Numbered from the stretch's first letter, positions 15,154 through 48,245 are shown. The stretch is 64,000 nucleotides of DNA from a virus (IMGVR_UViG_3300033074_001909:32001-96000); one strand, 5' to 3'. A program made the numbers and translations. Notes: generated by a model not told the origin, from the sequence alone.

Positions 15154-15226
15154 GCGACCGTAGCCTAATGGATCAGGCATCCGCCTTCTAAGCGGAGATA
15201 TGAAGGTTCGATTCCTTCCGGTCGTG
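15154..15226 (+). tRNA. tRNA-Arg(TCT)
   Basis: Acceptor GCGACCG/CGGTCGT, D arm, anticodon stem TCCGC-CTTCTAA-GCGGA, T arm GAAGG-TTCGATT-CCTTC; no encoded CCA. Confidence 0.92.
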
Positions 15227-28733: not shown

Positions 28734-29336
28734 ATGGGCAAACGCCGGATCAAACCGAGTGAACGCAAGCCGGTCGAGCCACCGCGCAAGCGGCGACGCG
28801 GCGTGGTGGACGAACCACCGGACCAAACGCCGCCCGATCCCGAGCAGACCAGCCCGTTCGAACACCTGCGGAACCCCAACCAGCGAATATTCCTGCGGGT
28901 GTACTGTCAGTGCTGGAGCATTACGCAGGCGGCCGAGGCGTCGGGCCTGTCGATATGGGCGCATTACTACTGGAAACGCACGGATGCGCTGTACCGGCGC
29001 GCGTTTGTCCTAGCCTGGAAAATCGCTGGGGACCGGTGCGAGGAAGAGGCGTATCGCCGGGCGGTGACGGGTCTTCGCCGCTTGAAGTTTGGGCCGAAAG
29101 GCAAGCCGCTGATTGATCCCGCCACGCGCCAGCCCTACGTGGAGCACGAATTTTCGGATCGGCTGCTCGAGCGGCTGCTGAAAGCCTTCAAACCACATCG
29201 CTATTGCGACCGGCAGGAGACGCAGCACAACGTGTCGGTGGATAGTCCCGCGCAGGGCAGTGGGGGCATGACGGATCTCTTAAAGACCTTCTGTGATACA
29301 CCACCAGAGTCCCCCGAATCTGCCGCTGCACCATGA
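28734..29336 (+). CDS. terS: terminase small subunit
   Basis: QRIFL..SITQAAEASG..YYW; EEEAYRRAVTG; FSDRLLERLLKA..P..Y; directly upstream of TerL. Confidence 0.8.
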   Translation: MGKRRIKPSERKPVEPPRKRRRGVVDEPPDQTPPDPEQTSPFEHLRNPNQRIFLRVYCQCWSITQAAEASGLSIWAHYYWKRTDALYRRAFVLAWKIAGDRCEEEAYRRAVTGLRRLKFGPKGKPLIDPATRQPYVEHEFSDRLLERLLKAFKPHRYCDRQETQHNVSVDSPAQGSGGMTDLLKTFCDTPPESPESAAAP

Positions 29337-31956
29337 GTCGATCCGCGACTGGCTGCACGCGGCGGCCACGATTCCGATTCAGTGGCGACGTCGGAAGTAT
29401 CTGCGCGACTGCCTGCGGGCCTCGTCCGAGTTGCGGGCCAAGTTGATCGAGAAGAACGACAGCCGGTTGACCACCCATATCCAACGGCTGTTCACGCATC
29501 CCTATTTCGCGTTCGAGCCCCGGCCCGATAATCCCGCCGCCGGCGATCAGCAGACCGGGTTTCTGGAGTCGCAGGCCTTCACGACAGTGGCTCTGGGAGG
29601 CACGGGTAGCGGCAAGAGCTACATCGGCTCACAACGGGCCATCAAGTTCCTCTGCGAGGATCAGCGACCGCCAATCAAGGACACGCCCTTCTTCGTGATC
29701 GCCGACAACCTGGAGGAATCCTCCAAGGCTTGCTGGGCGCAGAAACTCCACGATCTGTTGCCGCGGGAGTGGGTCGACTGGGACCGCATTACCTGGCGCA
29801 GCGCGAAGATGAATTTTCCGCGCATCGTGCCGCTGCGGCCCTGGCAGGACGACCCCAAGACGAACTGGGCGATTTACTTCTGCGGCTACACCCAGGACCG
29901 CAAGGCCTTCCAGGCCATCGCGGCCGGCGGCGCGTGGTTCACGGAACAATTCCCGTACGACATCTACGAGGAAGTCGTCGGGCGTATGCGACAATGGATG
30001 TTCAACGGCGCTCTGTGGCTGGAATTCACGCCGCTGGATCCGACCGACAGCGTCAAAGTCCAGGAGCTGTACGAGAAGTGGACGCGGGGCGAGCTCGACG
30101 AGGATCAATGGTCGTTCTACCGCCTCAACACCGAAGAAGCGGCGAAGAAGGGACACGTCAAGCAGGAGTTTGTCGACACGCTCAAGGCGACGATCTCACC
30201 CGAGATGCTCGCTACCCGCTTGCGCGGGGATTTCGGCTCCTACGAGGGTGTGATCTATCAGAGTCTCAACCCGCTAGTGCATTTCGTGCCCGGGACGCAA
30301 TACGACAAGTGTCCGCGCGATATTAACCTGACGTACAAGCGAGGCATCGACTGGGGCGCCGGCCCATCGAATGCGTTTGTCGTCTTGTGGGGCGCCAAGG
30401 ATTCCATGGGCCGCTGGTTCATTTTCGACGAGTATTACACCACGGATCAGCTCATGACCTGGGAAGATCACGTGCGGGAGATTCACAAGAAGGATGGGTG
30501 GAAACTCATTGGCCAGATAGACCGCGGTCTGACGACGTACCGCCTGGAGCCGATCCCAGGCGTGCCGCAGCGGTGGATTTACGAGCGCTCGAATTTTGGC
30601 CAGACCTACGCGCCACCCGAGCAGCCGGACTTATTCCGTGAGTTCGCGAAATACTGCCTGCCCGTGACGCCAGCCCGGAATGCCTTTCACCCCGGCGTGG
30701 ATTGCGTGCGGCGGCATTTGAAATTCGACGACTTCACGCTCGAGCAGCGGACCGAGCCGCAACTGTTCATCGATCGGCGCGCGTGCCCAAATCTGGCAAG
30801 AGAACTGCCAGCGCTGCAGTGGAAAGACCCGCCCAAGGCAGGCGTGAATCCTTCAAGCGCCAAGATGGAACAGAAAAAAATACATGACCACTCCTGCACG
30901 ATTTCTTCGACGCTCGTGTTGACGGAATCGGGATGGAAGCCAATTATCGAGATCCAGCGAGGCGAGATGGTGGCCTCGCTCGACGGCTGGACTCGGGTGG
31001 AATGCGGAGCGGTCAAGACGGGCGTAAATCGCCCATTGGTGCGAATCACGTTGGACAATGGGGCCGAGGTGGTGTGTACTCCCTGCCATCGGTTCCCGAC
31101 GGAGGATGGATCATGGATCGCGGCGGAACACCTGCTGGGCCGACGTTTGGCGAAGTGGTGCGATACACCACCAGGAGTGGGCAGATGGCGGAATCCATCG
31201 AGTACGGCGGAATGGTGTGGCGACGATACCCCAACTCGCGATTCCCGGCTGCTCGCTACTTCGTCAAGCGAGTTGGTAAGCGGCCTGATGCCATTCTTCT
31301 CCATCGCAGGATCTACGAAGATTTTGTGGGACCAATTCCAAAGGGAATGGCCATCCATCACAAAGACGGGTGCATTACCAACAACCACCCATCCAACCTG
31401 GAACTTTGCACGTTCCGGGATCATTCACAAAAGCATGTGTCCGACAATGTCAACATGCGACAAGGCTTACGCGAGTGGCGACAGAAGCAGCCAGGACAAC
31501 TTCGTCAAATCGCGAAAAATGCCAGCGACGCCTACTGGAGTGATCCACGCGTGGTCAGCCTTACTTGCTCGCATTGCGGCATCGCGTTTTCGTCAAAGGA
31601 CGTGCGCACTAACCGAAAGCGATACTGCTCTGGTGCATGCAATCGGCAGGCGTTGCGAACCGAAAAGCGGCTATGCAAACATTGTGGCCAGGAGTTCTTG
31701 GCGGCATCCTTCGAGCCAAACGTCTTTTGTAGCAAGCGGTGCTCTGCGTGTTATGGAGGTATCCTCCTGCGGAACCGCCGACACGTACTGCATCGCGACT
31801 GAGTCGGGTTCGATGGTGTGGGGAGGCGGAGTCGTGGCGTCAAACTGTGATGCATTGCGCTACCTGCTATACTCCGACTGGATGGGCAACACGGGTGGCA
31901 TCGAAGCCTTCCAGGCCCCGCAGCCGCATCGTCCGCAAGTGCGATTAAGGAAATGA
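29293..31956 (+). CDS. terL: terminase large subunit, intein-containing (start uncertain)
   Basis: Walker A GGTGSGKS, FTPL, RLRGDF, GIDWG, FDEYY, DHS/CDALRY. Confidence 0.9.
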   Translation: MIHHQSPPNLPLHHESIRDWLHAAATIPIQWRRRKYLRDCLRASSELRAKLIEKNDSRLTTHIQRLFTHPYFAFEPRPDNPAAGDQQTGFLESQAFTTVALGGTGSGKSYIGSQRAIKFLCEDQRPPIKDTPFFVIADNLEESSKACWAQKLHDLLPREWVDWDRITWRSAKMNFPRIVPLRPWQDDPKTNWAIYFCGYTQDRKAFQAIAAGGAWFTEQFPYDIYEEVVGRMRQWMFNGALWLEFTPLDPTDSVKVQELYEKWTRGELDEDQWSFYRLNTEEAAKKGHVKQEFVDTLKATISPEMLATRLRGDFGSYEGVIYQSLNPLVHFVPGTQYDKCPRDINLTYKRGIDWGAGPSNAFVVLWGAKDSMGRWFIFDEYYTTDQLMTWEDHVREIHKKDGWKLIGQIDRGLTTYRLEPIPGVPQRWIYERSNFGQTYAPPEQPDLFREFAKYCLPVTPARNAFHPGVDCVRRHLKFDDFTLEQRTEPQLFIDRRACPNLARELPALQWKDPPKAGVNPSSAKMEQKKIHDHSCTISSTLVLTESGWKPIIEIQRGEMVASLDGWTRVECGAVKTGVNRPLVRITLDNGAEVVCTPCHRFPTEDGSWIAAEHLLGRRLAKWCDTPPGVGRWRNPSSTAEWCGDDTPTRDSRLLATSSSELVSGLMPFFSIAGSTKILWDQFQREWPSITKTGALPTTTHPTWNFARSGIIHKSMCPTMSTCDKAYASGDRSSQDNFVKSRKMPATPTGVIHAWSALLARIAASRFRQRTCALTESDTALVHAIGRRCEPKSGYANIVARSSWRHPSSQTSFVASGALRVMEVSSCGTADTYCIATESGSMVWGGGVVASNCDALRYLLYSDWMGNTGGIEAFQAPQPHRPQVRLRK
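30895..31845 (+). mobile_element. intein in TerL (317 aa)
   Basis: C1 CTISSTLVLTESGWKPI, block B CTPCHRF, end TYCI..GVVASN|C; removal restores DHSCDALRY. Confidence 0.88.
31185..31802 (+). CDS. HNH homing endonuclease with Zn fingers, nested out of frame inside the intein
   Basis: AGGAG SD; LLHRRIYEDFVGPIPKGMAIHHKDGCITNNHPSNLE; CSHC/CSGAC/CKHC/CSKRC. Confidence 0.85.
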   Translation: MAESIEYGGMVWRRYPNSRFPAARYFVKRVGKRPDAILLHRRIYEDFVGPIPKGMAIHHKDGCITNNHPSNLELCTFRDHSQKHVSDNVNMRQGLREWRQKQPGQLRQIAKNASDAYWSDPRVVSLTCSHCGIAFSSKDVRTNRKRYCSGACNRQALRTEKRLCKHCGQEFLAASFEPNVFCSKRCSACYGGILLRNRRHVLHRD

Positions 31957-35905: not shown

Positions 35906-35936
35906 AGGCCCGGGAGTCACTCCTTGGGCCTTTTTT
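35906..35936 (+). terminator. leader terminator upstream of the portal gene
   Basis: AGGCCCGGGAG-TCA-CTCCTTGGGCCTTTTTT. Confidence 0.65.
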
Positions 35937-35946
35937 GTTGGGAAAG

Positions 35947-38900
35947 ATGAGCATGACCACCACGCAACCAGGCGGGCAGCGGATCGGCGGACAGACCTAC
36001 ATGCCCGGGCAGATGCTGCCCGAACGCTATCGCCGCGTGCTGGAGCCGTCCGACCGGCCCCGCGATCCCGCCGTCCGTGATCCGGATCTGGCTCCCAACT
36101 TAGGCCGCCATACCGTCCCGCACATCATCACCTTCCAGGGGCTGGTCACCTCCCTAGCCCGGGCCTATCGCAATCCAGACGAGGCCTTCCGACACAGCGT
36201 CGAAAACGCCCACATGATGCTGACGGACCCGACAGTGAGCGGGCCCTTGCACGCGCGGCAGATGATGACGGCGCTGCTCCAGTGGTCGGTGGAAAGCGAG
36301 GACGACAAAGATTCACAGCTCAAAGAAGCGGCCAGCCAACTCCAGAAAGTCCTGGAACGGACGCCGCGGTTCGCTGAACTGCGCCGGTGGCTGCTGGAAG
36401 CTATCTGGTATGGTCGCGCGGCCAGCCAGCACGCGATCGGATTCCACCGCGATCGCTTCGGCGTGCGACGCAGGGTGATCAAGAAATGGCTGCCGATCTC
36501 TGGCGACAAGCTTCTCTTCCGCTACGACGACGGGAGCGGGGAGTTCGACCCGGATCAGATTGGCGTGCGGGTCAGCCCGGGACTCGGCCGCGAGGATATC
36601 ATCGCCGGGCGGCGCAAACTCGAGGCCACAACCGACGGCATGGGCTACTTCCTGGAGCCCTGGGAGCGTCGGCACTGGGCGGTCCACAAGCACATGATCC
36701 GCGACGGGGAATTCGAGGATCCACTCAGCGCAGGGCAGGTGCATGGCGTCGGCCTGCGGCACTTTCTCTATTGGGTCTGGTATCAGAAGCAGGAGGCTAT
36801 GGCGCAGCTCGCCGAGGTGCTCGACCGTACTGGCGCGGGGATCACCATCTACTATTACCCCGTCGGGAATCAGGAAGCGAAAACCCAGGTGGAAAAGGTG
36901 GCCCGCGAGCAGGCGCACACCAACGTGCTGGTGATGCCGTTCGACCCGGCCAGCACAGGCGGCGACCCGTATTCGATTCAACAAATCCCGCCCAACGTAG
37001 CCGGCCTGCAGGCCCTCCAGGACATCGTGGACGGTTATTTCGGCGACATGATCACGCGGGCCATTCTGGGTCAGACGCTGTCCAGCAAACCCTCCGCAGC
37101 GGGCATGAATACGGGCGTCTCGGATCTTCAGAAAGACTCCCTGTTCCATATCGTGCGATACGACGCGGTCAATCTCCAGGAAACCATCACGCGGGAGATC
37201 CTGTTGCCGCTGCGGGACTTCAACCTACCGAAGTTCCGCAACGTGGATTTCTTCTTCAAAATCTCGACCAAAGTCAGCGCGCCGCAGGAAGAACTGGCCG
37301 CCATTTATCAGGCCTGGCAGATGGGCACCAAAATCCGCGTCCAGGATCTCTTCCAGAAGCTCGACATGGCCATGCCGGACAAAGACGACAAGGTCGTGTT
37401 TAACCCGCAGATTGTGTCAGCCATTCAGCAGGTCGAGAGCGCCCCGATGGGTGGTCTCGCCCCGCCCGGTGGCGCCGGGCCTCAGCCTCCCGGCGCCACC
37501 CCATTTCCACCCGGTGCTGCGGAAGGCACCCCTACAAGTGAGGGCGGGGGCCAAAATGAACCCCCGCCCATAGATAGAGGGGGTGCCAGCGGCCAACCGG
37601 AGCAACTGGATAAGGCCGAAAGCCCCGAGCAGGAACGCCGGAAGTTGTTTGGCCCGATCCTGTACGGTAAGCGCGAGGAGTATCTGGAGCGGATCAGGGA
37701 AGCGGTCGAGAACACCGAGCCCAACCCCACCGAGGCCCAGCGCGAGGCCGGCAATTATCGCAAGGGCGTGGTGCATTGGCGGGGTTTAGAAGTGGTGATC
37801 GAGACGCCCAAGGGTCAGCGGCGGCGCCCGGAATGGCCAGCTCTGCGGGCGCATTACGGCTACATCCGCCGGCATTACCACACGGGCGAGCAACGGCTAG
37901 TCACCAGCGAGCCGTGCGCCGACGGCGACCATCTGGATATCTTCTTGGGGCCACAGCCCGAAAGCGACATCGTGTTCGTGATCGACCAAGTGACGGCCGA
38001 CGGAAAGTTCGACGAGCACAAGTGTATCCTGGGCACGACCAACAAGCGGGACGCCCGGGCGCTGTACCTGTCGAACTATGCGGACGGGTGGAAGTGCGGT
38101 CCGATCCGGGGCATGACGATCGAGACGTTCAAGCACTGGCTCGAGCACGGAGACCTGACGAAGCCGGTGGCGCGCCAGAAACTCAGGTACGCGCGGCAAT
38201 TGTCGCTGTTTGACGATACGTTCTCGCTGGTGCGCAAGCCGAGATCACTCTTTGACGAAGGATCGCATCCCCGGGCAAAAGAGCATGTGGAGATCCAGGG
38301 CAAGGAATACGAAGGCGGGCAATGGATCCCGAAAGACGCGGCGGTGGAAGCCACGCCAGCGGCCCAAGAGAAAATCGAGGTAGTGGACAAGTCCACGGGC
38401 GAAACCGAACCACTTGAGCAAACGCTGAAACCTGGGGATAATGCCACCGCATCGCCACCGAGTCCCGAGGACGACTCCCATGACCAACCACGATCCGACG
38501 CAGAATTCGCACCTGGAGAGCCAGATTCCACCGGAGGAGATGGAGATCGAGGACGACCTGACGACGGAGAATCTGGCGGCGCAGGCGATTTGGGAGCAAA
38601 TCCAGTTGGACCGTCAGAAGAACGGATCGTCACCTCACGCCAACAGCACACGCGCCCAGCGGATCGATCCCTCGTTCCAGAGCGACTTCGACAACATCTA
38701 GACGACCACCAGCAGGAAGGCGTCGCCAAGGCGATTGCCTCTCTTCGGGATGTTGGTGGCTTCCTTAACTCCGACGGGACTGGCGTCGGTAAGGCGCAGC
38801 CGCTCGACGAACCGATTTTGACTCCCACCGGATGGAAGCGGATGGGCGATCTGCAAATCGGCGATGAAGTCATTTCAGCCGACGGATTTCCCACCAAAAT

Positions 38901-41900
38901 CAGTGGCGTCTATCCGCAAGGGCACCTGGAAGTCTATCGCGTCACATTCAGCGATGGATCGTGGACCGAATGCTGTGCAGAGCATTTATGGCAAACCCAC
39001 ACATGGTCTGATCGCCGGAATTTATCTCGCGGTTTGCGTCGCCAGGGCAATGTCCGCTCTCTACGTGAAATTGCGAGTAGTTTGGTAGCTAACGGAGGTC
39101 AATCCAACCATTCAATTCCCATGACAGCCCCCGTCGCATTTCAGCCGCGACAAATCTTGCTTGACCCGTATGTTTTGGGCGTGCTGTTGGGTGACGGAGG
39201 AATGTCCCGACAAGCATCGTTGACAGTAACCAGCGTTGACCAGGAAATTCTAGATAGCGTAGGGCATACCTTGCCTACTGGAGTGCGATTGCGACGCATT
39301 GGAAATAGTCCTAGCTACTCGATCACCACGGATCGTCGCGCAACGAAGTCAGGCAATCCAATGGTGACGGAATTACGCCGTTTGGGACTTCATGGACCAG
39401 GAAAAACATCGGATACAAAATTCATCCCGGAAGACTACAAATTCAATTCCGTTGACGTTCGATTGTCCGTCTTGCAGGGACTAATGGATACAGACGGGAC
39501 AATTGATAAGCGTGGCACAAGTTGCGTTTACACGACAACTTCACGGAAATTGGCTGATGACATTGTGTTTCTTGTGCAGTCGTTGGGGGGAACCGCAAGA
39601 ATCCAAAGCAAGCAACCAACGTATTGTTACAACGGTGATAAACGAGACGGCAAGCAAGCGTACAACGTCACCTTGTGTCTTCCTCCTGAATTCAAGCCAT
39701 TCCGGTTGTCAAGGAAGTCAGGACGAGTAGTTCCTAAGTCTAAGTACGCACCTAGGCGATACATCAAGACGGTGGAGCAAATCGGCAGTAAACCTTGTCA
39801 GTGCATTGCAGTTGAAAATAAGTCGCATTTGTATCTGACACGCGGATTCATTGTCACGCACAATACCCGGCAGCTTCTCGCCACCGCGCAGCACTATCTA
39901 GATCAGGGTAAGAAGGTCATTGTCATCGCGCCTAAGGGCGTGACCAAAGCCGACTGGAAGAAAAAGACCGTCACCGGTTCCTGGCAGAATGACAGCCAGG
40001 CCATGGGTGTGCCGATCCACGTGACGCGGGACGAGATCGACCCCAAGGCGGTCAATATCTCGAGCTACGAGAATCTCGCGAAGCTCAAACGGCAGGTCGA
40101 CGACAACACGATCGTGATGTTCGACGAGGCGCACTCGCTGAAGAATCGCGATTCCGCCCGCTCCAAGCACGGCGTGGAAATGGCCAATACCGCGGCGGCG
40201 GTACTCTTTGCCACGGCCACTCCCGTCGACAAGGTCGAGCACCTGCACTACCTGGACCGAGCCGGTGCCTTTGGCGGGCGATATTACGGCCAGACCTACG
40301 AGCAATTGGGACTGGAGCAAGTCGAGCAGAGCATTGGCGGCGGCCAGACGGTCAAGAAGTGGCAGATTCGTCCTGGCGTCAAGGCATCCGAGGTCATGCG
40401 TCGCCTGTCGGGGCTATTCACGCGATTGACGGCCGATGGCCGGATGGTCAAGCGTGAAATCAGCATGAAGGACGTGCCGGTATCGGTACGGCAGGTGAAA
40501 CTGCCTCCCGAGGCCCACGAAGTCCTGGATCGCATTGAGGAGGAACTGACTGGCACCTCGGCCAATGAGGGCCTGGAACGAGCTCGCATCCTGATGCACC
40601 AGCGGCGACAGCAGGAACCGTATAAAGTCGCCCCCGCAGTCGACGAAGCGCTGCAGGCGCTCGACGCGGGCCGGCAGGTGGTGATTTTCGCGTCACGGGT
40701 CAATGAATCGCAGGTTGGCGGAGAGGATGACGACGACGAAAACGCCATCAAGTCCGAAGGAACCATGAAACTCCTGCGGGAAGAGCTCGAGCGGCGTGGC
40801 ATCAAGCCGGCCGACATCGCGGAGATTCACGGCGGGGTCTCCAAGACGAAGATTCCGAAAGAAATGGACCGCTTCCAAGCTGGTCAGGCTCGCGTCGTGA
40901 TCGCCACGGTGGAGAGTGGCGGCACGGGCATTAACCTGGACGACACGCGAGGAGACCGGCCGCGGACGCTGATCATGATGACGGCGCCATTTTCGGCGGT
41001 GGAAAACGTCCAGGCGGCTGGCCGAGTGTGGCGGCTCAAGACGAAGAGCATTCCCGAGATCAAGTATCTGTTCGGGGATACGGAAGTAGACGATTGGAAT
41101 TCGGCGCTGATCAGCAAGAAGATGCGGACGCTGGGCGCGTCGGTAAGCGGCCAGATTGGCAAACTCGACGTGAACAATCTGAACGAGTCGGACGCGATCG
41201 ATTTCGAGTCCGAAGAGCCGTACGAGTGGCAATATCCCGGGGAGGGTGAACCGCCCTCGGCGTCGTTCACTAAACTGGATAGCGGCGAGTGGGGAATGCG
41301 AGTGGATGGCCGGGTGCGACCGGGCGAAACGGTCGAGATCGCGAAGCGGGACGGATCGAAAACGCGGCGGGTAGTCGGGAAGATCGTCAAGGCGGGCGCC
41401 GGATTCACGATCGCGACGTTGAGCGATGCGGCGCCAGCCCGCGAGCAATTGCCGCCGCCTCCACCACCGCCGCCGTCGCCGCCTCCCCCCAAAGCGCCCA
41501 CGGCGAAGCCCAGTCATCCGTTCGAGGCACTGGCGGCGTGGTCGCAGCCGAAAAAGGTGAACACGGCGCAAGGGCCACGGATGGTGCGCAGCGCGCGCCC
41601 GACGGACAAATTCTGGAAAGAGTGGGGCAAGGACAAGGAGCGATTGAAGCGTCAGGGGATCAGCGTCTCGAAGTACCAAGGAGAATGGCAGATTTCCTGG
41701 TGGCAGGAGGCACCTGATCGCAACGCGAAACGCTACGCCAAGGACATCCTGCCCGGCGGACTCGCCGACGACGCGCCACCGGTGGATGCCGCAGCCTTAG
41801 CCCGCGGCATCGCCATCGAGATGGAGCACACAGACGATCCGGCGATCGCCAAGGAAATCGCGGCCGACCATCTGGCGGAATTCCCGGACTACTACGACGC

Positions 41901-42390
41901 CTTGGAACAAATGGAAGCGTCGCTCCGGTCGCGTGCGTCGAAACTGGGAGATCGCCTGCGCTACGCCAAGGACTTAGCAGACCTGTCGGCCGAACCGCTC
42001 ACCTACGCCTGCGCCTGCCGGCAGCGGTACGCGAAGGGTGACGAGTCGAGTCACGATCACGAACTGGGGCATGTAAGCGACCTGGAATTCGGGCAGGTGA
42101 GCGAGACGCCGGCATGGCGTGAGGCGTGGCAGCAAGAACTCGCCAGCGGCGAACTGAACGAGGAATCCAGCGAGAATCCAGCCGAGGGGCTGGCCGAGTA
42201 TGTGGCGCTGGTGCTGCAGTCCCCGAAGCAGGCTCGCGACGAGTACCCGGTTTGCTGGGAATCGCTCGAGATGGCCGGCATGATCGAAGACGTGGCAAGC
42301 GACGGTCCAGCCCGTTATGCTTACGACGAAAGCCAGCACCCTCGTGACGATGATGGCATGGTTCAAGAATACTCCAAATTAACAGGTTGA
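35947..42390 (+). CDS. portal (DUF935/Mu gp29-like) fused to polyvalent cargo: PPase-like domain, SF2/strawberry-notch-like helicase (with intein), DUF5661-like domain
   Basis: LLEAIWYG, GVGL..LYW, ITRAILGQTLS (portal); NYRKG..IETPKG..HYGYI..DGDHLDIFLGP..FDEHK; DGTGVGK/T, FDEAH, GGTGINL, QAAGRVWR; GIAIEMEHTDDP..AKEIAADHL.E.PDYY. Confidence 0.85.
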   Translation: MSMTTTQPGGQRIGGQTYMPGQMLPERYRRVLEPSDRPRDPAVRDPDLAPNLGRHTVPHIITFQGLVTSLARAYRNPDEAFRHSVENAHMMLTDPTVSGPLHARQMMTALLQWSVESEDDKDSQLKEAASQLQKVLERTPRFAELRRWLLEAIWYGRAASQHAIGFHRDRFGVRRRVIKKWLPISGDKLLFRYDDGSGEFDPDQIGVRVSPGLGREDIIAGRRKLEATTDGMGYFLEPWERRHWAVHKHMIRDGEFEDPLSAGQVHGVGLRHFLYWVWYQKQEAMAQLAEVLDRTGAGITIYYYPVGNQEAKTQVEKVAREQAHTNVLVMPFDPASTGGDPYSIQQIPPNVAGLQALQDIVDGYFGDMITRAILGQTLSSKPSAAGMNTGVSDLQKDSLFHIVRYDAVNLQETITREILLPLRDFNLPKFRNVDFFFKISTKVSAPQEELAAIYQAWQMGTKIRVQDLFQKLDMAMPDKDDKVVFNPQIVSAIQQVESAPMGGLAPPGGAGPQPPGATPFPPGAAEGTPTSEGGGQNEPPPIDRGGASGQPEQLDKAESPEQERRKLFGPILYGKREEYLERIREAVENTEPNPTEAQREAGNYRKGVVHWRGLEVVIETPKGQRRRPEWPALRAHYGYIRRHYHTGEQRLVTSEPCADGDHLDIFLGPQPESDIVFVIDQVTADGKFDEHKCILGTTNKRDARALYLSNYADGWKCGPIRGMTIETFKHWLEHGDLTKPVARQKLRYARQLSLFDDTFSLVRKPRSLFDEGSHPRAKEHVEIQGKEYEGGQWIPKDAAVEATPAAQEKIEVVDKSTGETEPLEQTLKPGDNATASPPSPEDDSHDQPRSDAEFAPGEPDSTGGDGDRGRPDDGESGGAGDLGANPVGPSEERIVTSRQQHTRPADRSLVPERLRQHLDDHQQEGVAKAIASLRDVGGFLNSDGTGVGKAQPLDEPILTPTGWKRMGDLQIGDEVISADGFPTKISGVYPQGHLEVYRVTFSDGSWTECCAEHLWQTHTWSDRRNLSRGLRRQGNVRSLREIASSLVANGGQSNHSIPMTAPVAFQPRQILLDPYVLGVLLGDGGMSRQASLTVTSVDQEILDSVGHTLPTGVRLRRIGNSPSYSITTDRRATKSGNPMVTELRRLGLHGPGKTSDTKFIPEDYKFNSVDVRLSVLQGLMDTDGTIDKRGTSCVYTTTSRKLADDIVFLVQSLGGTARIQSKQPTYCYNGDKRDGKQAYNVTLCLPPEFKPFRLSRKSGRVVPKSKYAPRRYIKTVEQIGSKPCQCIAVENKSHLYLTRGFIVTHNTRQLLATAQHYLDQGKKVIVIAPKGVTKADWKKKTVTGSWQNDSQAMGVPIHVTRDEIDPKAVNISSYENLAKLKRQVDDNTIVMFDEAHSLKNRDSARSKHGVEMANTAAAVLFATATPVDKVEHLHYLDRAGAFGGRYYGQTYEQLGLEQVEQSIGGGQTVKKWQIRPGVKASEVMRRLSGLFTRLTADGRMVKREISMKDVPVSVRQVKLPPEAHEVLDRIEEELTGTSANEGLERARILMHQRRQQEPYKVAPAVDEALQALDAGRQVVIFASRVNESQVGGEDDDDENAIKSEGTMKLLREELERRGIKPADIAEIHGGVSKTKIPKEMDRFQAGQARVVIATVESGGTGINLDDTRGDRPRTLIMMTAPFSAVENVQAAGRVWRLKTKSIPEIKYLFGDTEVDDWNSALISKKMRTLGASVSGQIGKLDVNNLNESDAIDFESEEPYEWQYPGEGEPPSASFTKLDSGEWGMRVDGRVRPGETVEIAKRDGSKTRRVVGKIVKAGAGFTIATLSDAAPAREQLPPPPPPPPSPPPPKAPTAKPSHPFEALAAWSQPKKVNTAQGPRMVRSARPTDKFWKEWGKDKERLKRQGISVSKYQGEWQISWWQEAPDRNAKRYAKDILPGGLADDAPPVDAAALARGIAIEMEHTDDPAIAKEIAADHLAEFPDYYDALEQMEASLRSRASKLGDRLRYAKDLADLSAEPLTYACACRQRYAKGDESSHDHELGHVSDLEFGQVSETPAWREAWQQELASGELNEESSENPAEGLAEYVALVLQSPKQARDEYPVCWESLEMAGMIEDVASDGPARYAYDESQHPRDDDGMVQEYSKLTG
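38794..39864 (+). mobile_element. class 3 (Ala-1, WCT) LAGLIDADG intein in the helicase Walker A
   Basis: GK|AQPLDEPILTPTGW; HLW, CQCI, VTHN|T; LGVLLGDG and LQGLMDTDG; lower GC. Confidence 0.92.
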
Positions 42391-43626
42391 TTATGCCCAG
42401 TTTCTCTGTATTTCCTGGTCGAAGATAGTCTTGTGGTGCCACGTCGGTCCGAACGACAGGCTGGATACGCCAGCCGCGTGAGTCCGGAAGCAATGCTCGA
42501 TCCACTCCAGAAACTCGGTTATCGAAGAGGCAACGGATAAACTGGCAGTCGGCGGCAATTCCGACAGCAGGTAGTCGGCTCGGCGCCCGTCATTCGGTAG
42601 CTCTTCTAACTGATAGAAATCGTGATGAACGATCACGGGCGACAGGTAGTCCAGCCAAGTGACGGCCAGGGAGTGCAGAGGTCCGCCGCAGTGTCGCGAG
42701 GCATATTCCAGGAGGTCGCAACAGTGGTAGCCGACCCGCAGCGGGCCTTGCCAGGGATTGGTCACGTTGTGGTCTGACAAAAGTCGCATGTCAGGGCGCC
42801 AGCCCGGGAACGGCCCGGCGCCGTGCCGTGTGGCCAGGGACCGCAGAATGCCCATGTGATGGACATCACGGATCCCCATCGCCTCGAGCGGCTCCCGGGC
42901 AGCATCAAGCGTCACAGTCGACCATGTGGTGTAAGGGTGGAAGCCCACGTGCTCGTCCAATAGGACGCCTTGGGCGCCCTCGAAGATGGCGCAATCCAAC
43001 TTGCCGCTAAGGCCGGTGGCGGACAATTGCAGGTGAAGTTCTTGTGCCACTTCCTGGTACTTGTCGGCATACTCCAGGAACGCCGGCAGGGTGACGCTGA
43101 GGCCATAGTGCTCGGCCTGGGCCTGCAGTTTGTCTCGGCAGACGGTCCGCGACGACAGATCCTTGGCGAAGATAGTCAGGTCGAGGTGGCACCGGGCCAT
43201 GTGCCGGCATTCGCCGATCCCCAGTCCGCAGGAACCGTGCCGCTGGTCCCCGCGAGCGCGCTCCCGTTCGCGATTGATGAAGCGATGCGCCACGGTCGCC
43301 ACGGGGCACTCCGGATGGACACGCAGCAGCGACCACGGGTCGGAGATACCCAGTTCTTGGAGGTGTCGAGCCTCATTACGCATGGCCAGGGGGTCGATGA
43401 TCATGTCCCGCCAGAGCCACGTGGGGACGCCGTGCAGGGTGCCCGCTCCCCATTGGCTGAAGCAATGGGATCGCCCATCCGGCAAAACCACATGATGGGC
43501 GGCCTGGTATCCGCCGCTGTAGCGTACGACCAGGTCCGCCCGCCAGCGTTGGCAGAGGGCATCGACCATGGTGCCTTTCCCCTCGTCACCAAACCCGAGC
43601 CCCACGGTCACAATCGCCCTCGCCAT
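42391..43626 (-). CDS. divergent adenylosuccinate-synthetase (PurA)-like protein
   Basis: GLGFGDEGKG, RYSGGYQAAHHV, HGSCGLGIGE, FEGAQGVLLD, TRHGAGPF. Confidence 0.88.
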   Translation of the reverse strand: MARAIVTVGLGFGDEGKGTMVDALCQRWRADLVVRYSGGYQAAHHVVLPDGRSHCFSQWGAGTLHGVPTWLWRDMIIDPLAMRNEARHLQELGISDPWSLLRVHPECPVATVAHRFINRERERARGDQRHGSCGLGIGECRHMARCHLDLTIFAKDLSSRTVCRDKLQAQAEHYGLSVTLPAFLEYADKYQEVAQELHLQLSATGLSGKLDCAIFEGAQGVLLDEHVGFHPYTTWSTVTLDAAREPLEAMGIRDVHHMGILRSLATRHGAGPFPGWRPDMRLLSDHNVTNPWQGPLRVGYHCCDLLEYASRHCGGPLHSLAVTWLDYLSPVIVHHDFYQLEELPNDGRRADYLLSELPPTASLSVASSITEFLEWIEHCFRTHAAGVSSLSFGPTWHHKTIFDQEIQRNWA

Positions 43627-43640
43627 ATACCCTCGACTCC

Positions 43641-44603
43641 TTACAACGTTGTTAAGCCGGTGCCTTTGGTGACATTAGCCACGGCCCCCGGGCCATCCCG
43701 CAGCACGACGGCCTTGGTGACCGTATCGGCAGAGCGGCCCGCCTCGCCCAGATCCTGTGCCAACCCGGACAGGTCTACGGCGCCTTCACAGACGCCGATT
43801 TGGGCCGCGATGAAGTCGCTGATGGCGGCCGGATCCTCGAGACGGAGCGCCTGCTGTCCCAAGTGTTGCTTCCAGAATTCCAGGATGCGCGGCTCGTTGT
43901 AGTAGGACGTCAGGTTCGGCAGGATGTAAAACACTTCCCACCGCTCCTGGGCCTCTTTCACGATTTGCTCCAGGGGAATGCTAGCTTCGAGTTTGTCGCC
44001 GAAGATGTTCTCCACCTGGTGACGATCGACGCGGGGATAGGCCATTTCATCGCCGATCAGGAAGGCATAGCCCTTCTTCTGACGCTTCTCCCAGGCGTCG
44101 CAGACCGTCTTGCGGGCCAGGAAATACAACGCCAGCTCGTAGGATTCGGTTCGTTGGCCACCCCCTCCGCCCTCGAGGAACAGGTTGGTCAGGTCGTTCT
44201 CGATCTCAATTCCAGACTCGAATTGCCCGACTTGGAGCGGCGCCCGGTCGCACGTGGCATCCCCGACGCCGGCCACGCAAATAGCGGCATCCGCCAAATA
44301 GGACTTGCGCAGCAGCAGGCCCATCAGGGAGCAGAGATTCGCTTGCAAGATGCCCGGGACGGTGTTCATCGAACCGGTGACGTCGAAGCCGACGAACACG
44401 GGCACGGATTCGGGATGCTGCGCGCTGTCGCGGCACTCGCGGATGCCGGCCTTGAGTTTGGCGGGATCGAGCGAGTGATGAGCCGCCGCAGCGGTTTTTC
44501 CTTTGCGGATCGCGTCGTCGTGCGCAAACGTCGGCGCGTTCGTGGCCGACCGATGCAGAGCACGCGAACTGTAATGTTCATCTGACCAACTTGTGCCACC
44601 CAT
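43641..44603 (-). CDS. vWA-domain protein
   Basis: MIDAS DVTGSM, GVGDA, LQVGQFES, EGGGGG..ESYELA, IGDE. Confidence 0.88.
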   Translation of the reverse strand: MGGTSWSDEHYSSRALHRSATNAPTFAHDDAIRKGKTAAAAHHSLDPAKLKAGIRECRDSAQHPESVPVFVGFDVTGSMNTVPGILQANLCSLMGLLLRKSYLADAAICVAGVGDATCDRAPLQVGQFESGIEIENDLTNLFLEGGGGGQRTESYELALYFLARKTVCDAWEKRQKKGYAFLIGDEMAYPRVDRHQVENIFGDKLEASIPLEQIVKEAQERWEVFYILPNLTSYYNEPRILEFWKQHLGQQALRLEDPAAISDFIAAQIGVCEGAVDLSGLAQDLGEAGRSADTVTKAVVLRDGPGAVANVTKGTGLTTL

Positions 44604-44618
44604 GGTGAAAACCCCTTG

Positions 44619-45584
44619 CTACATGTCCAACGGAACAAACACCGGAGGTCCGAAAAGCTGATCCAGCAAGTCGGTAAACTCCGCACACAACTGCCACGCA
44701 TCGGAGGGCGCTAATCGCCCCGGCAGGCAGCAACTACGCATAAAGCCGCGCATCAGCGGCGGCAGAGCCTCCTCGCCGCCGGCCATCTGTACCAGCGTGC
44801 GGGCGGCCAAGTGAATATCCAGCGCGGGCGTCGCCTCCTTGCCGGGATACCACGCCTTGTGGCTGCTGGGCACGACAGGGACTGGACTGCCCAGTTTGGC
44901 GGCATGGATCCAGTCGCACAGCACCAGCCCGTGATTGGCAGCCGACCAGAGGCAGTGCTGGGGCAGGACGGCACAGTGCGCCCAGCCGTAGCGATGGGCA
45001 AAGCCCAGGACGGTGAGCATCCGCTTGAACATCCACGCCAGGTGCCGGCTGTCGAGCGGGGCATGCTTTGTCAACACGTCGGCCGTGGTGAACAGCCCGG
45101 GACGCCGGTGGAACACGTTCACCCGGACTTTTCCCACCAGGAACGATTCCACGGGGAGGGGCAGGTAATGCGAGTAGGTCGACGTGCCCGCCGCCTGTTC
45201 ATGCAAGTGCTCGAGCACTTCCCGCTCTTTGGCGAGGAGGTTATTCGCGGCCGGCAGCGTGACATAAGGCGTTTTGAGGAGGTAGGCCTGTCCGTCACTG
45301 GTCGCATACTGCACGTCGCACAGATCGCCGCGGCCCAGCGTGGAGCGCACGGAATACTCGCGGGTCGGCGAGGTCACCACCTGGAGCGGGGCCTGACTGG
45401 CGGCCGCTTTGAGTGCCCCGAGCTCGCGAAACAGCCGGGCCGCCCGATCGCGGTCCCGTTCGGGGAAACGGTCCGGATGCAGCCGCACCGCGTACCAGCG
45501 ATAGAGCGTGTCGGGGTCGGGACCGAAGAACGCCACTGGATCCAGTCGAGCCGAGGACAGTTCGCGCTCCAGGTCAGCCAGCAT
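44619..45584 (-). CDS. J-domain-like (HPD) fused to a Ser/Thr kinase-like fold
   Basis: YRWYAVRLHPDR; LGRGDLCDV, LLK, AKE..L, AHCAVLPQH, LCDW. Confidence 0.78.
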   Translation of the reverse strand: MLADLERELSSARLDPVAFFGPDPDTLYRWYAVRLHPDRFPERDRDRAARLFRELGALKAAASQAPLQVVTSPTREYSVRSTLGRGDLCDVQYATSDGQAYLLKTPYVTLPAANNLLAKEREVLEHLHEQAAGTSTYSHYLPLPVESFLVGKVRVNVFHRRPGLFTTADVLTKHAPLDSRHLAWMFKRMLTVLGFAHRYGWAHCAVLPQHCLWSAANHGLVLCDWIHAAKLGSPVPVVPSSHKAWYPGKEATPALDIHLAARTLVQMAGGEEALPPLMRGFMRSCCLPGRLAPSDAWQLCAEFTDLLDQLFGPPVFVPLDM

Positions 45585-45621
45585 TTTGCATCTCCTTGCG
45601 AAACAGACTCACCAACGGGTA

Positions 45622-45653
45622 TTGCATTATGCGACTTATATTTCATAATGCAA
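45622..45653. promoter_or_regulatory. palindromic bidirectional promoter/operator
   Basis: TTGCATTATG-N12-CATAATGCAA reads TTGCAT-16-CATAAT on both strands between divergent genes. Confidence 0.65.
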
Positions 45654-45725
45654 CCCGGTGTGTGGTGATACCTGAAATGGACCGCATGGTATCCTGGGGC
45701 CTTTCCCAATTAGGAGGGGGTCGAC

Positions 45726-46922
45726 ATGGCAAGCGAGTGGGTGCCGTACACAGGGCCGCGCGGCGGCAAGGGCTGGCAGCACATGACGTCGGGGCAGGTG
45801 GTGTACGGTGATAAGCCAGGCGAGCAAGCCAAGCCCGAACAGTCGCCGCAGGCCGAGAAGCCCGTCCCCAGACCCGAGCAGGAAACCACGGCCTGGCATC
45901 CGGTAGGCGAGGGGCTGTGGCAACACCCCAAGACGGGCGAACTGGTGAAAGGGAAATCCGCTCCCTCTGCCAGCGAGACCGCCAGCGTGCTGGAGCAGGC
46001 CCGCCAGCGGACGCGACACCCGAGCCAAGAGCCAAAGCCTGCTGCGGCACCCCCTCCGCAGCCTGCCGCGCCTCGATCGGCCTCACCTGAAGGAAGGGCG
46101 GGGGCCAAAATGAACCCCCGCTCGGTCGACGAGTTGGTGAAGGAACTGGATGCCCTGCCGGACGGGGTGGAAATCCTGGGCTGGAAGAAGGAAACGCCCA
46201 TGGGCTTCGGCATGCCGCTGTGGACGCGTAAGGACGAGGCCAAGACGACGGCAGGCATGGTCAAGGCCCATGGCGTGATGGGGATTCGAGGGGCCATGCC
46301 AGACCCGCAGGCAGCCGCCCCTGAGCCAGCCAAAGGGGATCGAGCGTTCTCGCCCGAGGAACTCGACGACGTGGGCGCGGTGTCAGCCATGTTCGGGATT
46401 GCGCCCGGAGACGTGGGCAACGAGCAGCAATTGCGGCTCTTTTTGCGTCGGACAGCGCGGCATGTGGGCTTCGATCCGGACAAGGTGCCAGGAGACAAGA
46501 CCGACAAGGCGGTGGCGGCAGCGCAATTCCTGCGGCAGCGGCGGGGACATCTCGAGGGGCTGGTGAAGATGGCGCAGGGCTATGGCTGGGGCGGAGGGTC
46601 TGGCCGCGAGCTGGCCCAGCGGGCCCGGCATGCGGGGCTGTATCTGGTCAAGAAGGCAGTGCAGGAGGGCTACGAAGTGAGCGGAGACACGGAACAAGAG
46701 CATTTAGCCGGAGCGCTGGACTACCTGCATCACCGGGAGCAGGAGCGGCGGCCGGGTCACGACGTGGGCGGGGTGATTGGGCAGGCTCTGCAGCGGATGC
46801 TGGCGGGCAGCCGGTCAGGCCGGATCAGTTGGTGGGACGTGGCGATGGCGGCGGTTGGTTTTTATGTGGGTTACCAGTTGATGCGGCGTCTGCGCCGCAA
46901 AGGGAGGGACCGATCTTTATAA
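45726..46922 (+). CDS. hypothetical protein (N-terminal GPRGG motif, C-terminal TM)
   Basis: AGGAGG SD; WVPYTGPRGGKGW; WWDVAMAAVGFYVGY. Confidence 0.7.
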   Translation: MASEWVPYTGPRGGKGWQHMTSGQVVYGDKPGEQAKPEQSPQAEKPVPRPEQETTAWHPVGEGLWQHPKTGELVKGKSAPSASETASVLEQARQRTRHPSQEPKPAAAPPPQPAAPRSASPEGRAGAKMNPRSVDELVKELDALPDGVEILGWKKETPMGFGMPLWTRKDEAKTTAGMVKAHGVMGIRGAMPDPQAAAPEPAKGDRAFSPEELDDVGAVSAMFGIAPGDVGNEQQLRLFLRRTARHVGFDPDKVPGDKTDKAVAAAQFLRQRRGHLEGLVKMAQGYGWGGGSGRELAQRARHAGLYLVKKAVQEGYEVSGDTEQEHLAGALDYLHHREQERRPGHDVGGVIGQALQRMLAGSRSGRISWWDVAMAAVGFYVGYQLMRRLRRKGRDRSL

Positions 46923-46937
46923 GATCGGGATAATGGA

Positions 46938-48245
<1,308 letters not shown>

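Follow-up and report, generated by a model that had tools for sequence, protein, structure and literature searches.

A PurA-like protein, a von Willebrand factor A protein and a J-domain pseudokinase form a conserved bacterial and phage cassette with a possible link to NAD and ADP-ribose metabolism

Positions 42,391 to 45,584 of a 64,000-nucleotide stretch of viral DNA (bases 32001-96000 of the single 106,332-bp virus contig IMGVR_UViG_3300033074_001909; this whole stretch is called the window below) hold a minus-strand cassette of three genes. They encode a J-domain protein with a Hanks-type pseudokinase fold, a von Willebrand factor A (vWA) protein with a metal-ion-dependent adhesion site (MIDAS), and a divergent paralogue of the adenylosuccinate synthetase PurA. 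Its usual form is a chromosomal operon of bacteria, under an NrtR-type regulator, and it is not peculiar to this phage. We give about even chances to the view that it is an undescribed module linked to NAD and ADP-ribose, in which a GTP-dependent ligase of the PurA fold would act on an acceptor other than aspartate; the vWA protein would be its obligate partner, and a pseudokinase that recruits DnaK would often serve as adaptor. As part of the same evenly balanced view, the trio in the window would be a regulator-less phage copy of this widespread module.

The PurA-like protein departs from PurA and PurZ

The PurA-like gene (42391-43626, minus strand) is an open reading frame (ORF) for 411 residues. 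Its product matches Pfam PF00709 over residues 6-329 (3e-42; 145 bits against a gathering score of 27), and a profile of 36 family members aligns E. coli PurA over its full length (residues 3-425, 3e-60). The protein misses the cut-offs of the NCBIfam purA equivalogs (116 against 402 bits for PRK01117, 93 against 395 bits for TIGR00184) and scores 26.7 against a cut-off of 300 bits with the PurZ model NF038379. Database labels for these proteins are 'adenylosuccinate synthase' or '2-aminooxy adenylosuccinate synthetase'.

The P-loop Asp13, His41, the FEGAQG motif (Gln224), Thr239, the guanine-specificity Asp333 and the C-terminal GP motif are all retained; the window protein reads GDEGKG, AAHH and TWLD at positions where the family consensus is GD[AE]GKG, QAaHN and tHLD. 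In PurA-type chemistry, the carbonyl oxygen of a nucleotide-like substrate is phosphorylated, and the phosphate is then displaced by an amine. As the fold, Asp13, His41, Gln224, Thr239 and the guanine-binding Asp are kept, a GTP-driven reaction of this kind is likely for the PurA-like protein as well.

The substrate-binding residues are a different matter. The aspartate loop of PurA, GATTGRRRR (T300, T301, R303, R305), is replaced across the whole family by N-x-T-N-x-W-Q-G-x-[FL]-R, and the window copy carries NVTNPWQGPLRVG in its place. Further family-wide changes turn GTTG (Thr129) into RHGSCG (Cys), Asn38 into Gln and Val273 into His. Arg143, which in PurA contacts the 5'-phosphate of inosine monophosphate (IMP) from the partner subunit, has no aligned residue, and the 5'-phosphate ligand set N38/T129/T239/R143 is only partly kept (T239 is present, as is Q224). 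The motifs RHGSCG, TTWST and TRHG are signatures of the family, and the family alignment places new invariant His and Cys residues at the former IMP pocket (RHGSCG, GFHP, TRHG). Judged from the alignments, the substitutions are conserved throughout the family and are not decay of the window copy. The PurA-like protein is probably a GTP-dependent enzyme with different substrates. One metagenomic member (P0194) carries a C-terminal fusion to the uncharacterised domain DUF6939 (PF22075, 1e-77), which was absent from all other cassette loci examined and from the literature searched.

A maximum-likelihood tree unites the cassette proteins in one clade with 100/99 support and a stem of length 1.3, separate from canonical PurA and from the PurZ of phiVC8. 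The latter joins the canonical PurA side on a very long branch, and its exact position is unsure. The window protein sits on a long branch of its own and groups with planctomycete copies (100/99), consistent with a planctomycete host with which the phage has exchanged genes. Five cassette-bearing bacterial genomes each have two PF00709 genes, a canonical purA at 550-610 bits and the cassette copy at ~200 bits. In Micromonospora sp. NBC_01638 (G001), the canonical purA (C1:2438221-2439468) lies only ~10 kb from the cassette (2448792-2451800), an observation made in this genome.

The initial annotation had held that the protein is not PurZ and that its aspartate loop diverges, and had suggested a phylogeny against PurA and PurZ as a check. 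Both views stand: Asp13 is kept, where PurZ of phiVC8 reads GSTGKG, and the tree sets the clade apart from PurZ; with T300, T301, R303 and R305 replaced family-wide and R143 and T129 lost, the protein is no ordinary PurA.

The vWA protein has a complete MIDAS and a nearly invariant N-terminus

The vWA protein (43641-44603, minus strand, 320 residues) matched no Pfam family at E <= 0.1 and corresponds to phrog_2971 (5e-71). Its AlphaFold2 model, with a predicted local distance difference test (pLDDT) score of 89.7, is matched by Foldseek at probability 1.00 to integrin I-domains and to the vWA domains of collagen VI and NorD. The MIDAS is complete (D74-V-T76-G-S78, GGGGGQxTES and IGD185E) and (nearly) invariant in 40 aligned sequences.

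Some homologues from mycobacteriophages and metagenomes carry an intein (KGY/C...SSN/C) four residues ahead of the MIDAS Asp in IGDE. It spans ~250 residues (KGY/CNTPDAP...SSN/C) in P0249 (mycobacteriophages such as Audrick, Shaqnato and Quasimodo), P0244 and P0247, and gives weak matches to Hint modules. Inteins usually occupy strongly constrained functional sites, and the insertion next to the MIDAS Asp therefore argues that this site matters. The insert of Quasimodo is annotated as an HNH endonuclease.

The N-terminus of the vWA protein follows the nearly invariant pattern MG[GS][GST]x[WYF][SD], with a Tyr at position 11. MG opens all 40 aligned sequences, every fusion protein (see below) and 78 of 79 viral copies; among the cluster representatives, 135 of 149 start this way, and most of the 14 that deviate are fragments. 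The nucleophile in PurA is the alpha-amine of aspartate. Since removal of the initial Met would leave a free Gly amine, the vWA N-terminus may be the acceptor that replaces aspartate. At the other end of the protein, 18 residues are predicted to be disordered and terminate with a short, conserved hydrophobic stretch (GTGLxxL in the window protein, VDRL or LVEF elsewhere), which looks like a docking tail.

The third protein is a pseudokinase with a J-domain-like HPD motif

The first gene of the cassette (44619-45584, minus strand, 321 residues) encodes a protein that matches phrog_3043 'kinase' (1e-16). Its AlphaFold2 model (pLDDT 95.1) shows a Hanks fold behind an N-terminal pair of helices with an HPD motif between them, and Foldseek matches it to AAK1, PknB and YabT at 1e-9, and also to PAK1, STRAD and VRK3. 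The homologue in phage Gizmo is recognised as Pkinase at 9e-9 and as DnaJ at 1e-3. The HPD motif, H36-P37-D38, lies in the model between a helix of residues 24-35 and one of residues 42-64, and is conserved in the family.

The beta3 Lys, the alphaC Glu and the Asp of DFG (here in CDW) are kept as K104, E120 and D224, all in well-conserved columns of the alignment; among 67 homologues, K104 and E120 are invariant. The catalytic loop HRDxKxxN has become HCAVLPQH in the window protein and HGAvLPxH across the homologues. With the catalytic Asp, Lys and Asn gone, the protein is a pseudokinase. A kinase fold without the HRD Asp, with DW in place of DFG and with an HPD-bearing J-like domain is what had first been described for this gene, and these traits prove to be family-wide. 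All motifs quoted at that stage recur in the translations, namely GDEGKG, FEGAQG and NVTNPWQGPLRVG in the PurA-like protein and HCAVLPQH, CDW and LHPDR in the kinase-like protein.

The cassette is widespread in bacteria and phages

Among isolated phage genomes searched with tblastn, 201 Mycobacterium Bixzunavirus records and one Mycolicibacterium phage have all three genes, ordered as in the window; in Gizmo, the counterparts are gp267, gp268 and gp270. The pair of vWA and PurA-like genes is also present in relatives of Vibrio phage pv27 and in Rhizobium Cuauhnahuacvirus. A small ORF lies between these two genes in Bixzunaviruses (gp269 of Gizmo; L001 4726-4992, 88 residues) and in Vibrio phage pv27 (L002 6870-6965, 31 residues); the window has no such ORF.

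Relatives of the vWA protein number 5184 among 90% clusters, and form 1002 clusters at 50% identity with E <= 1e-30. We sampled 80 bacterial loci, from Planctomycetota, Actinomycetota (Micromonospora, Nocardiopsis, Nocardia, Rhodococcus erythropolis and others) and Chloroflexota, together with 80 viral contigs from IMG/VR that bear the vWA gene, many of them 100-400 kb long. In 76 of the 80 bacterial loci, the PurA-like gene directly follows the vWA gene, and the stop codon of one often overlaps the start codon of the other; the two genes adjoin in 76 of the 80 viral loci as well. The kinase-like gene is found directly upstream in 67 bacterial loci and next to the vWA gene in 60 viral ones. 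At least six natural fusions join an N-terminal vWA part to a C-terminal PurA-like part (P0241-43, P0245, P0250 and P0251), all of which start with MG. Judged by both samples, the vWA and PurA-like genes are the obligate core of the cassette, which the fusions reinforce. A neighbourhood survey had been proposed in the initial annotation, where a lack of joint conservation of the three genes was to be part of a refutation; this lack is clearly not what the samples and the 201 Bixzunavirus records show.

Clustering of all ORFs that flank the 80 bacterial loci showed that none besides four genes, the trio and an NrtR-type gene, recurs across genera. The distribution is patchy in a class-wide sample (13 of 301 genomes). 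Within Micromonospora, 59 of 81 species have the cassette, always in single copy and at a syntenic position surrounded by thiolase, SDR, acyl-CoA dehydrogenase, TetR and DedA-type genes. In Gemmataceae bacterium CJuql4 (L013/G005), both the kinase-like and the PurA-like neighbour of the vWA gene are missing, and a PurA-like paralogue is found on a separately numbered contig (G005:C3), which may represent a rare split cassette.

NrtR-type regulators and NAD-related genes accompany many copies

A gene of the NrtR type (NUDIX plus NrtR_WHD) is adjacent to the cassette and co-directional with it in 65 of the 80 bacterial loci, either before the kinase-like gene or after the PurA-like gene; in the viral sample, it is present in 9 of 80 loci. 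NrtR proteins repress NAD metabolism and respond to ADP-ribose (PMC2330246). The Nudix box is intact in some of the cassette-associated proteins and degenerate in others, as it is within the NrtR family. Planctomycete loci carry a TTGACTTA box followed by 19-21-bp palindromes upstream of the nrtR start, palindromes that are typical of such operators, and actinomycete loci share a TTCTCA...TGAGAA pattern.

On the contigs of huge phages (L096, L110/L142, L121 and L128), the gene order is NrtR - (Nampt) - vWA - Nudix - (Nampt) - PurA-like - kinase. Genes for Nampt (PF04095 plus PF18127) and Nudix proteins are located inside the cassette in four or five viral loci. Rhizobium phage TM61 has phosphoribosyltransferase and NMNAT/Nudix genes a few ORFs upstream of the cassette pair. 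This context of NrtR, Nampt and Nudix genes, which the initial annotation could not take into account, is the sole functional pointer for the cassette, and a partial one.

Two further candidates were set aside. Nampt is not a constant companion of the cassette, as it is common in phages generally and its mycobacteriophage matches fall in ~75-kb genomes other than Bixzunaviruses. For nrtX-nrtY, a two-gene unit of unknown identity (Rodionov et al. 2008), no link to the cassette could be made.

Organisation of the phage locus

Gaps of only 15 nt (pseudokinase to vWA) and 14 nt (vWA to PurA-like) separate the three minus-strand ORFs, which therefore form one operon. This agrees with the initial annotation, which had described a three-gene minus-strand operon with its own promoter. 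The promoter is plausible but putative. Upstream of the operon lies a divergent intergenic region of 141 bp (45585-45725), the presumed promoter/operator, with an AAGGAG ribosome-binding site at 45592-45597 and a perfect 10+10-bp inverted repeat (TTGCATTATG-N12-CATAATGCAA) at 45622-45653, between the cassette and a plus-strand gene that begins at 45726. A scan for the sigma-70 consensus returned no promoter match. The palindrome is a possible operator shared by the two divergent genes. We do not claim it as an NrtR site: the letters of its half-sites are similar, but its spacer is 12 nt long, unlike the NrtR-type boxes of planctomycetes.

The cassette is downstream of, and convergent with, a giant plus-strand gene (35935-42390), with abutting stop codons and 0 nt between them. 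Its 2151-residue product combines a portal-like N-terminus, a minor-head/DarB-like segment, a Hint/intein-like insertion at about residues 940-1316 and an SNF2-type helicase; the PHROG matches within the insertion are to unrelated intein-bearing families. The large terminase is encoded at 29293-31956 of the window. That the cassette is carried by a phage, as first proposed, is borne out by the terminase and portal encoded on the 106-kb virus record. Elsewhere in the window, imperfect four-residue repeats form a long series in the middle of a 435-residue protein (46938-48245, plus strand), and all three frames are open on both strands across it; the protein gives only faint PHROG matches. A tRNA-Arg(TCT) gene at 15154-15226 (plus strand) is the sole tRNA gene of the window.

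Comparison with known systems

By the features that define them, the cassette belongs to none of PurA, PurZ, the TerY-P triad, the MoxR-vWA pairs, the NARP pathways or the PADLOC systems. It shares with PurA (EC 6.3.4.4; PF00709; E. coli structures 1ADE/1KJX) the full-length fold and the GTP-binding and catalytic residues, and differs from it in the W-Q-G-x-[FL]-R loop, the missing R143, Cys for T129, Gln for N38 and the separate clade. Moreover, in the five genomes mentioned above the cassette copy is second to a true purA, and its pairing with, or fusion to, a vWA protein is obligate. Phage PurZ and PurZ0 of the 2-aminoadenine pathway are likewise phage-borne PurA paralogues with altered substrate use. 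However, PurZ replaces Asp13 (GSTGKG in phiVC8) and still uses aspartate, whereas the cassette protein keeps Asp13, loses the aspartate loop and belongs to a family that is mostly chromosomal in bacteria.

The MoxR-vWA pairs (NorQ/NorD, CbbQ/CbbO, RavA/ViaA) resemble the cassette in that a MIDAS-bearing vWA gene stands beside an NTP-driven partner and a client enzyme. In contrast, the cassette has a PurA-fold partner and no AAA+ ATPase, and energy coupling would presumably come from host DnaK through the J-domain pseudokinase. The TerY-P triad, reportedly defined by Anantharaman, Iyer and Aravind in 2012, is said to combine a vWA protein with a Ser/Thr kinase and a PP2C phosphatase. It also couples a vWA gene to a Hanks-fold kinase domain; set against this definition, the cassette has no phosphatase, its kinase-like protein bears a J-domain and lacks the catalytic Asp, Lys and Asn, and the PurA-like protein is a constant partner.

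With the NrtR regulons and the NARP1-3 pathways, the cassette shares an NrtR-type gene that heads or follows the bacterial copies, the interleaving of some huge-phage copies with Nampt and Nudix genes, and a phage-borne context. The genes of these pathways (Adps/Namat, Nampt/NMNAT, PnuC/NadR) lie outside the three-gene core, and none of them was found in this phage. The NARP1-3 papers do not mention a PurA-like enzyme. The literature searched describes neither the trio nor a PurA-like enzyme together with a vWA protein, a J-domain or NrtR.

Discussion

If the cassette is a module linked to NAD and ADP-ribose, its parts may work together as follows. The PurA-like protein would still be a GTP-dependent ligase that no longer uses aspartate, and probably not plain IMP either. 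The vWA protein may bind this enzyme through its MIDAS, or may supply the acceptor, for which the invariant N-terminal Gly is the simplest candidate. The pseudokinase would bind a nucleotide without phosphotransfer and, through its J-domain, recruit host DnaK to the complex. Bacteria would turn the module on during NAD+ breakdown. The phage would express the cassette from its own control region and so sustain an NAD- or nucleotide-linked step in the infected planctomycete host; it may also act against NAD+-depleting immunity. The initial annotation had likewise proposed a GTP-dependent ligase with a non-aspartate acceptor. This part of the proposal is strengthened by the replaced aspartate loop, the kept GTP-binding and catalytic residues and the conserved partners, while the phage-specific conflict-system role that was attached to it is not supported. 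Given the joint conservation of the trio and the fusions of vWA and PurA-like proteins, a protein acceptor offered by the vWA protein is a live idea.

Several observations weigh against this module. The genome of the window phage gave no match to NrtR, Nampt or Nudix, and the mycobacteriophage Nampt matches come from ~75-kb genomes and not from the 155-kb Bixzunaviruses, so that the NAD link is contextual and partial. Not every regulator of the NrtR family senses ADP-ribose; AraR, for instance, senses arabinose. About a quarter of the viral loci have no detectable kinase-like gene: the kinase hidden Markov model matched none of the ORFs upstream of the vWA gene in 19 such loci, nor those of the Vibrio and Rhizobium phages, and by inspection these ORFs are mutually unrelated. 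The J-domain family PF00226 gave no Pfam match to the window protein and reached 19 bits, against a threshold of 27.8, with the Gizmo homologue. Finally, the MG start of the vWA protein could be structural instead of an acceptor.

Three other explanations have to be considered. The plainest one takes the PurA-like gene as an ordinary auxiliary purine gene, either a phage adenylosuccinate synthetase or a PurZ for 2-aminoadenine DNA, with two unrelated neighbours. The database names and the PF00709 match speak for it. Nevertheless, the aspartate-binding residues and R143 are replaced family-wide and D13 is kept, unlike in PurZ; the scores fall far below the purA equivalog (116 against 402 bits) and PurZ (26.7 against 300 bits) cut-offs; the clade is distinct from both, host genomes retain a canonical purA, and the neighbours are conserved and even fused. 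A plain PurA or PurZ is thus largely refuted by the sequence, with its replaced aspartate loop, low scores, separate clade and second purA, and we regard this explanation as very improbable. A conflict system directed against phages or between phages is less remote, yet still unlikely. Here, the vWA protein and the pseudokinase would sense an invader, and the PurA-like protein would deplete GTP or IMP, make a toxic or signalling nucleotide or modify a target protein; phages would carry the cassette for superinfection exclusion or counter-defence, a role to which we give similarly low weight. The patchy occurrence in the class-wide sample (13 of 301 genomes), the varying flanks between genera and the presence in many phages would suit such a system, and Nudix-HTH regulators and vWA 'chaperones' have been predicted in ADP-ribose-centred conflict systems (PMC9503650). 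Yet none of the three proteins has a PADLOC-DB 2.0 family at E <= 0.01, the cassette includes no nuclease, pore or other usual effector, and 201 Bixzunavirus isolates carry it. In the 59 of 81 Micromonospora species, it occupies one syntenic place among metabolic genes and no defence island or prophage. The phage-specific conflict system of the initial annotation does not hold for what is mainly a chromosomal bacterial operon in such surroundings.

With a similarly small probability, the vWA protein and the J-domain pseudokinase could form an Hsp70-coupled 'activase', analogous to NorQ/NorD and CbbQ/CbbO. This would load a cofactor on the PurA-like protein or free it of a tightly bound inhibitor or product; the acceptor, which we consider unlikely in the same degree, would be a small-molecule amine (ammonia or another metabolite) and not a protein. 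The match of the vWA model to the vWA of NorD from NorQD complexes, the conserved HPD of the J-domain, the new invariant His and Cys residues at the former IMP pocket (RHGSCG, GFHP, TRHG) and the natural fusion of the core pair are all in line with an activase. However, there is no AAA+ partner, the J-domain pseudokinase is missing from ~1/4 of the viral loci, and the invariant MG N-terminus is not explained by an activase alone.

If the NAD- and ADP-ribose-linked module is preferred over these alternatives, the question is which reaction the PurA-like protein would catalyse. More tentatively than for the module as such, we propose that this reaction is new to the fold and that the module is a fourth, as yet undescribed pathway linked to NAD+ and ADP-ribose. 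The reaction could consist of a GTP-driven attachment of a purine nucleotide, through C6, to the free N-terminal Gly of the vWA protein, of the GTP-dependent amination or amidation of an NAD-related (pyridine or hypoxanthine) nucleotide or dinucleotide, or of another reaction of this type. The first of these, if true, would be a new kind of protein nucleotidylation.

Taken together, the ~1000 clusters of the vWA family at 50% identity, whose partner is labelled plain 'adenylosuccinate synthase', point to a large and systematically mis-annotated enzyme family. The cassette is present in tractable organisms, namely Bxz1-type mycobacteriophages growing on M. smegmatis, Rhodococcus erythropolis and Micromonospora. 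Even if it were only a chaperone-assisted metabolic enzyme, the combination of a J-domain pseudokinase, a MIDAS protein and a SIMIBI-type ligase would still be without precedent in our searches. If the link to NAD and ADP-ribose is true, bacteria would switch the module on through NrtR, and large phages, including all Bxz1-type mycobacteriophages, would carry it against NAD+ depletion. The cassette would then represent a new branch of NAD+ depletion and reconstitution in the conflict between phage and host, together with a new type of reaction for the PurA fold.

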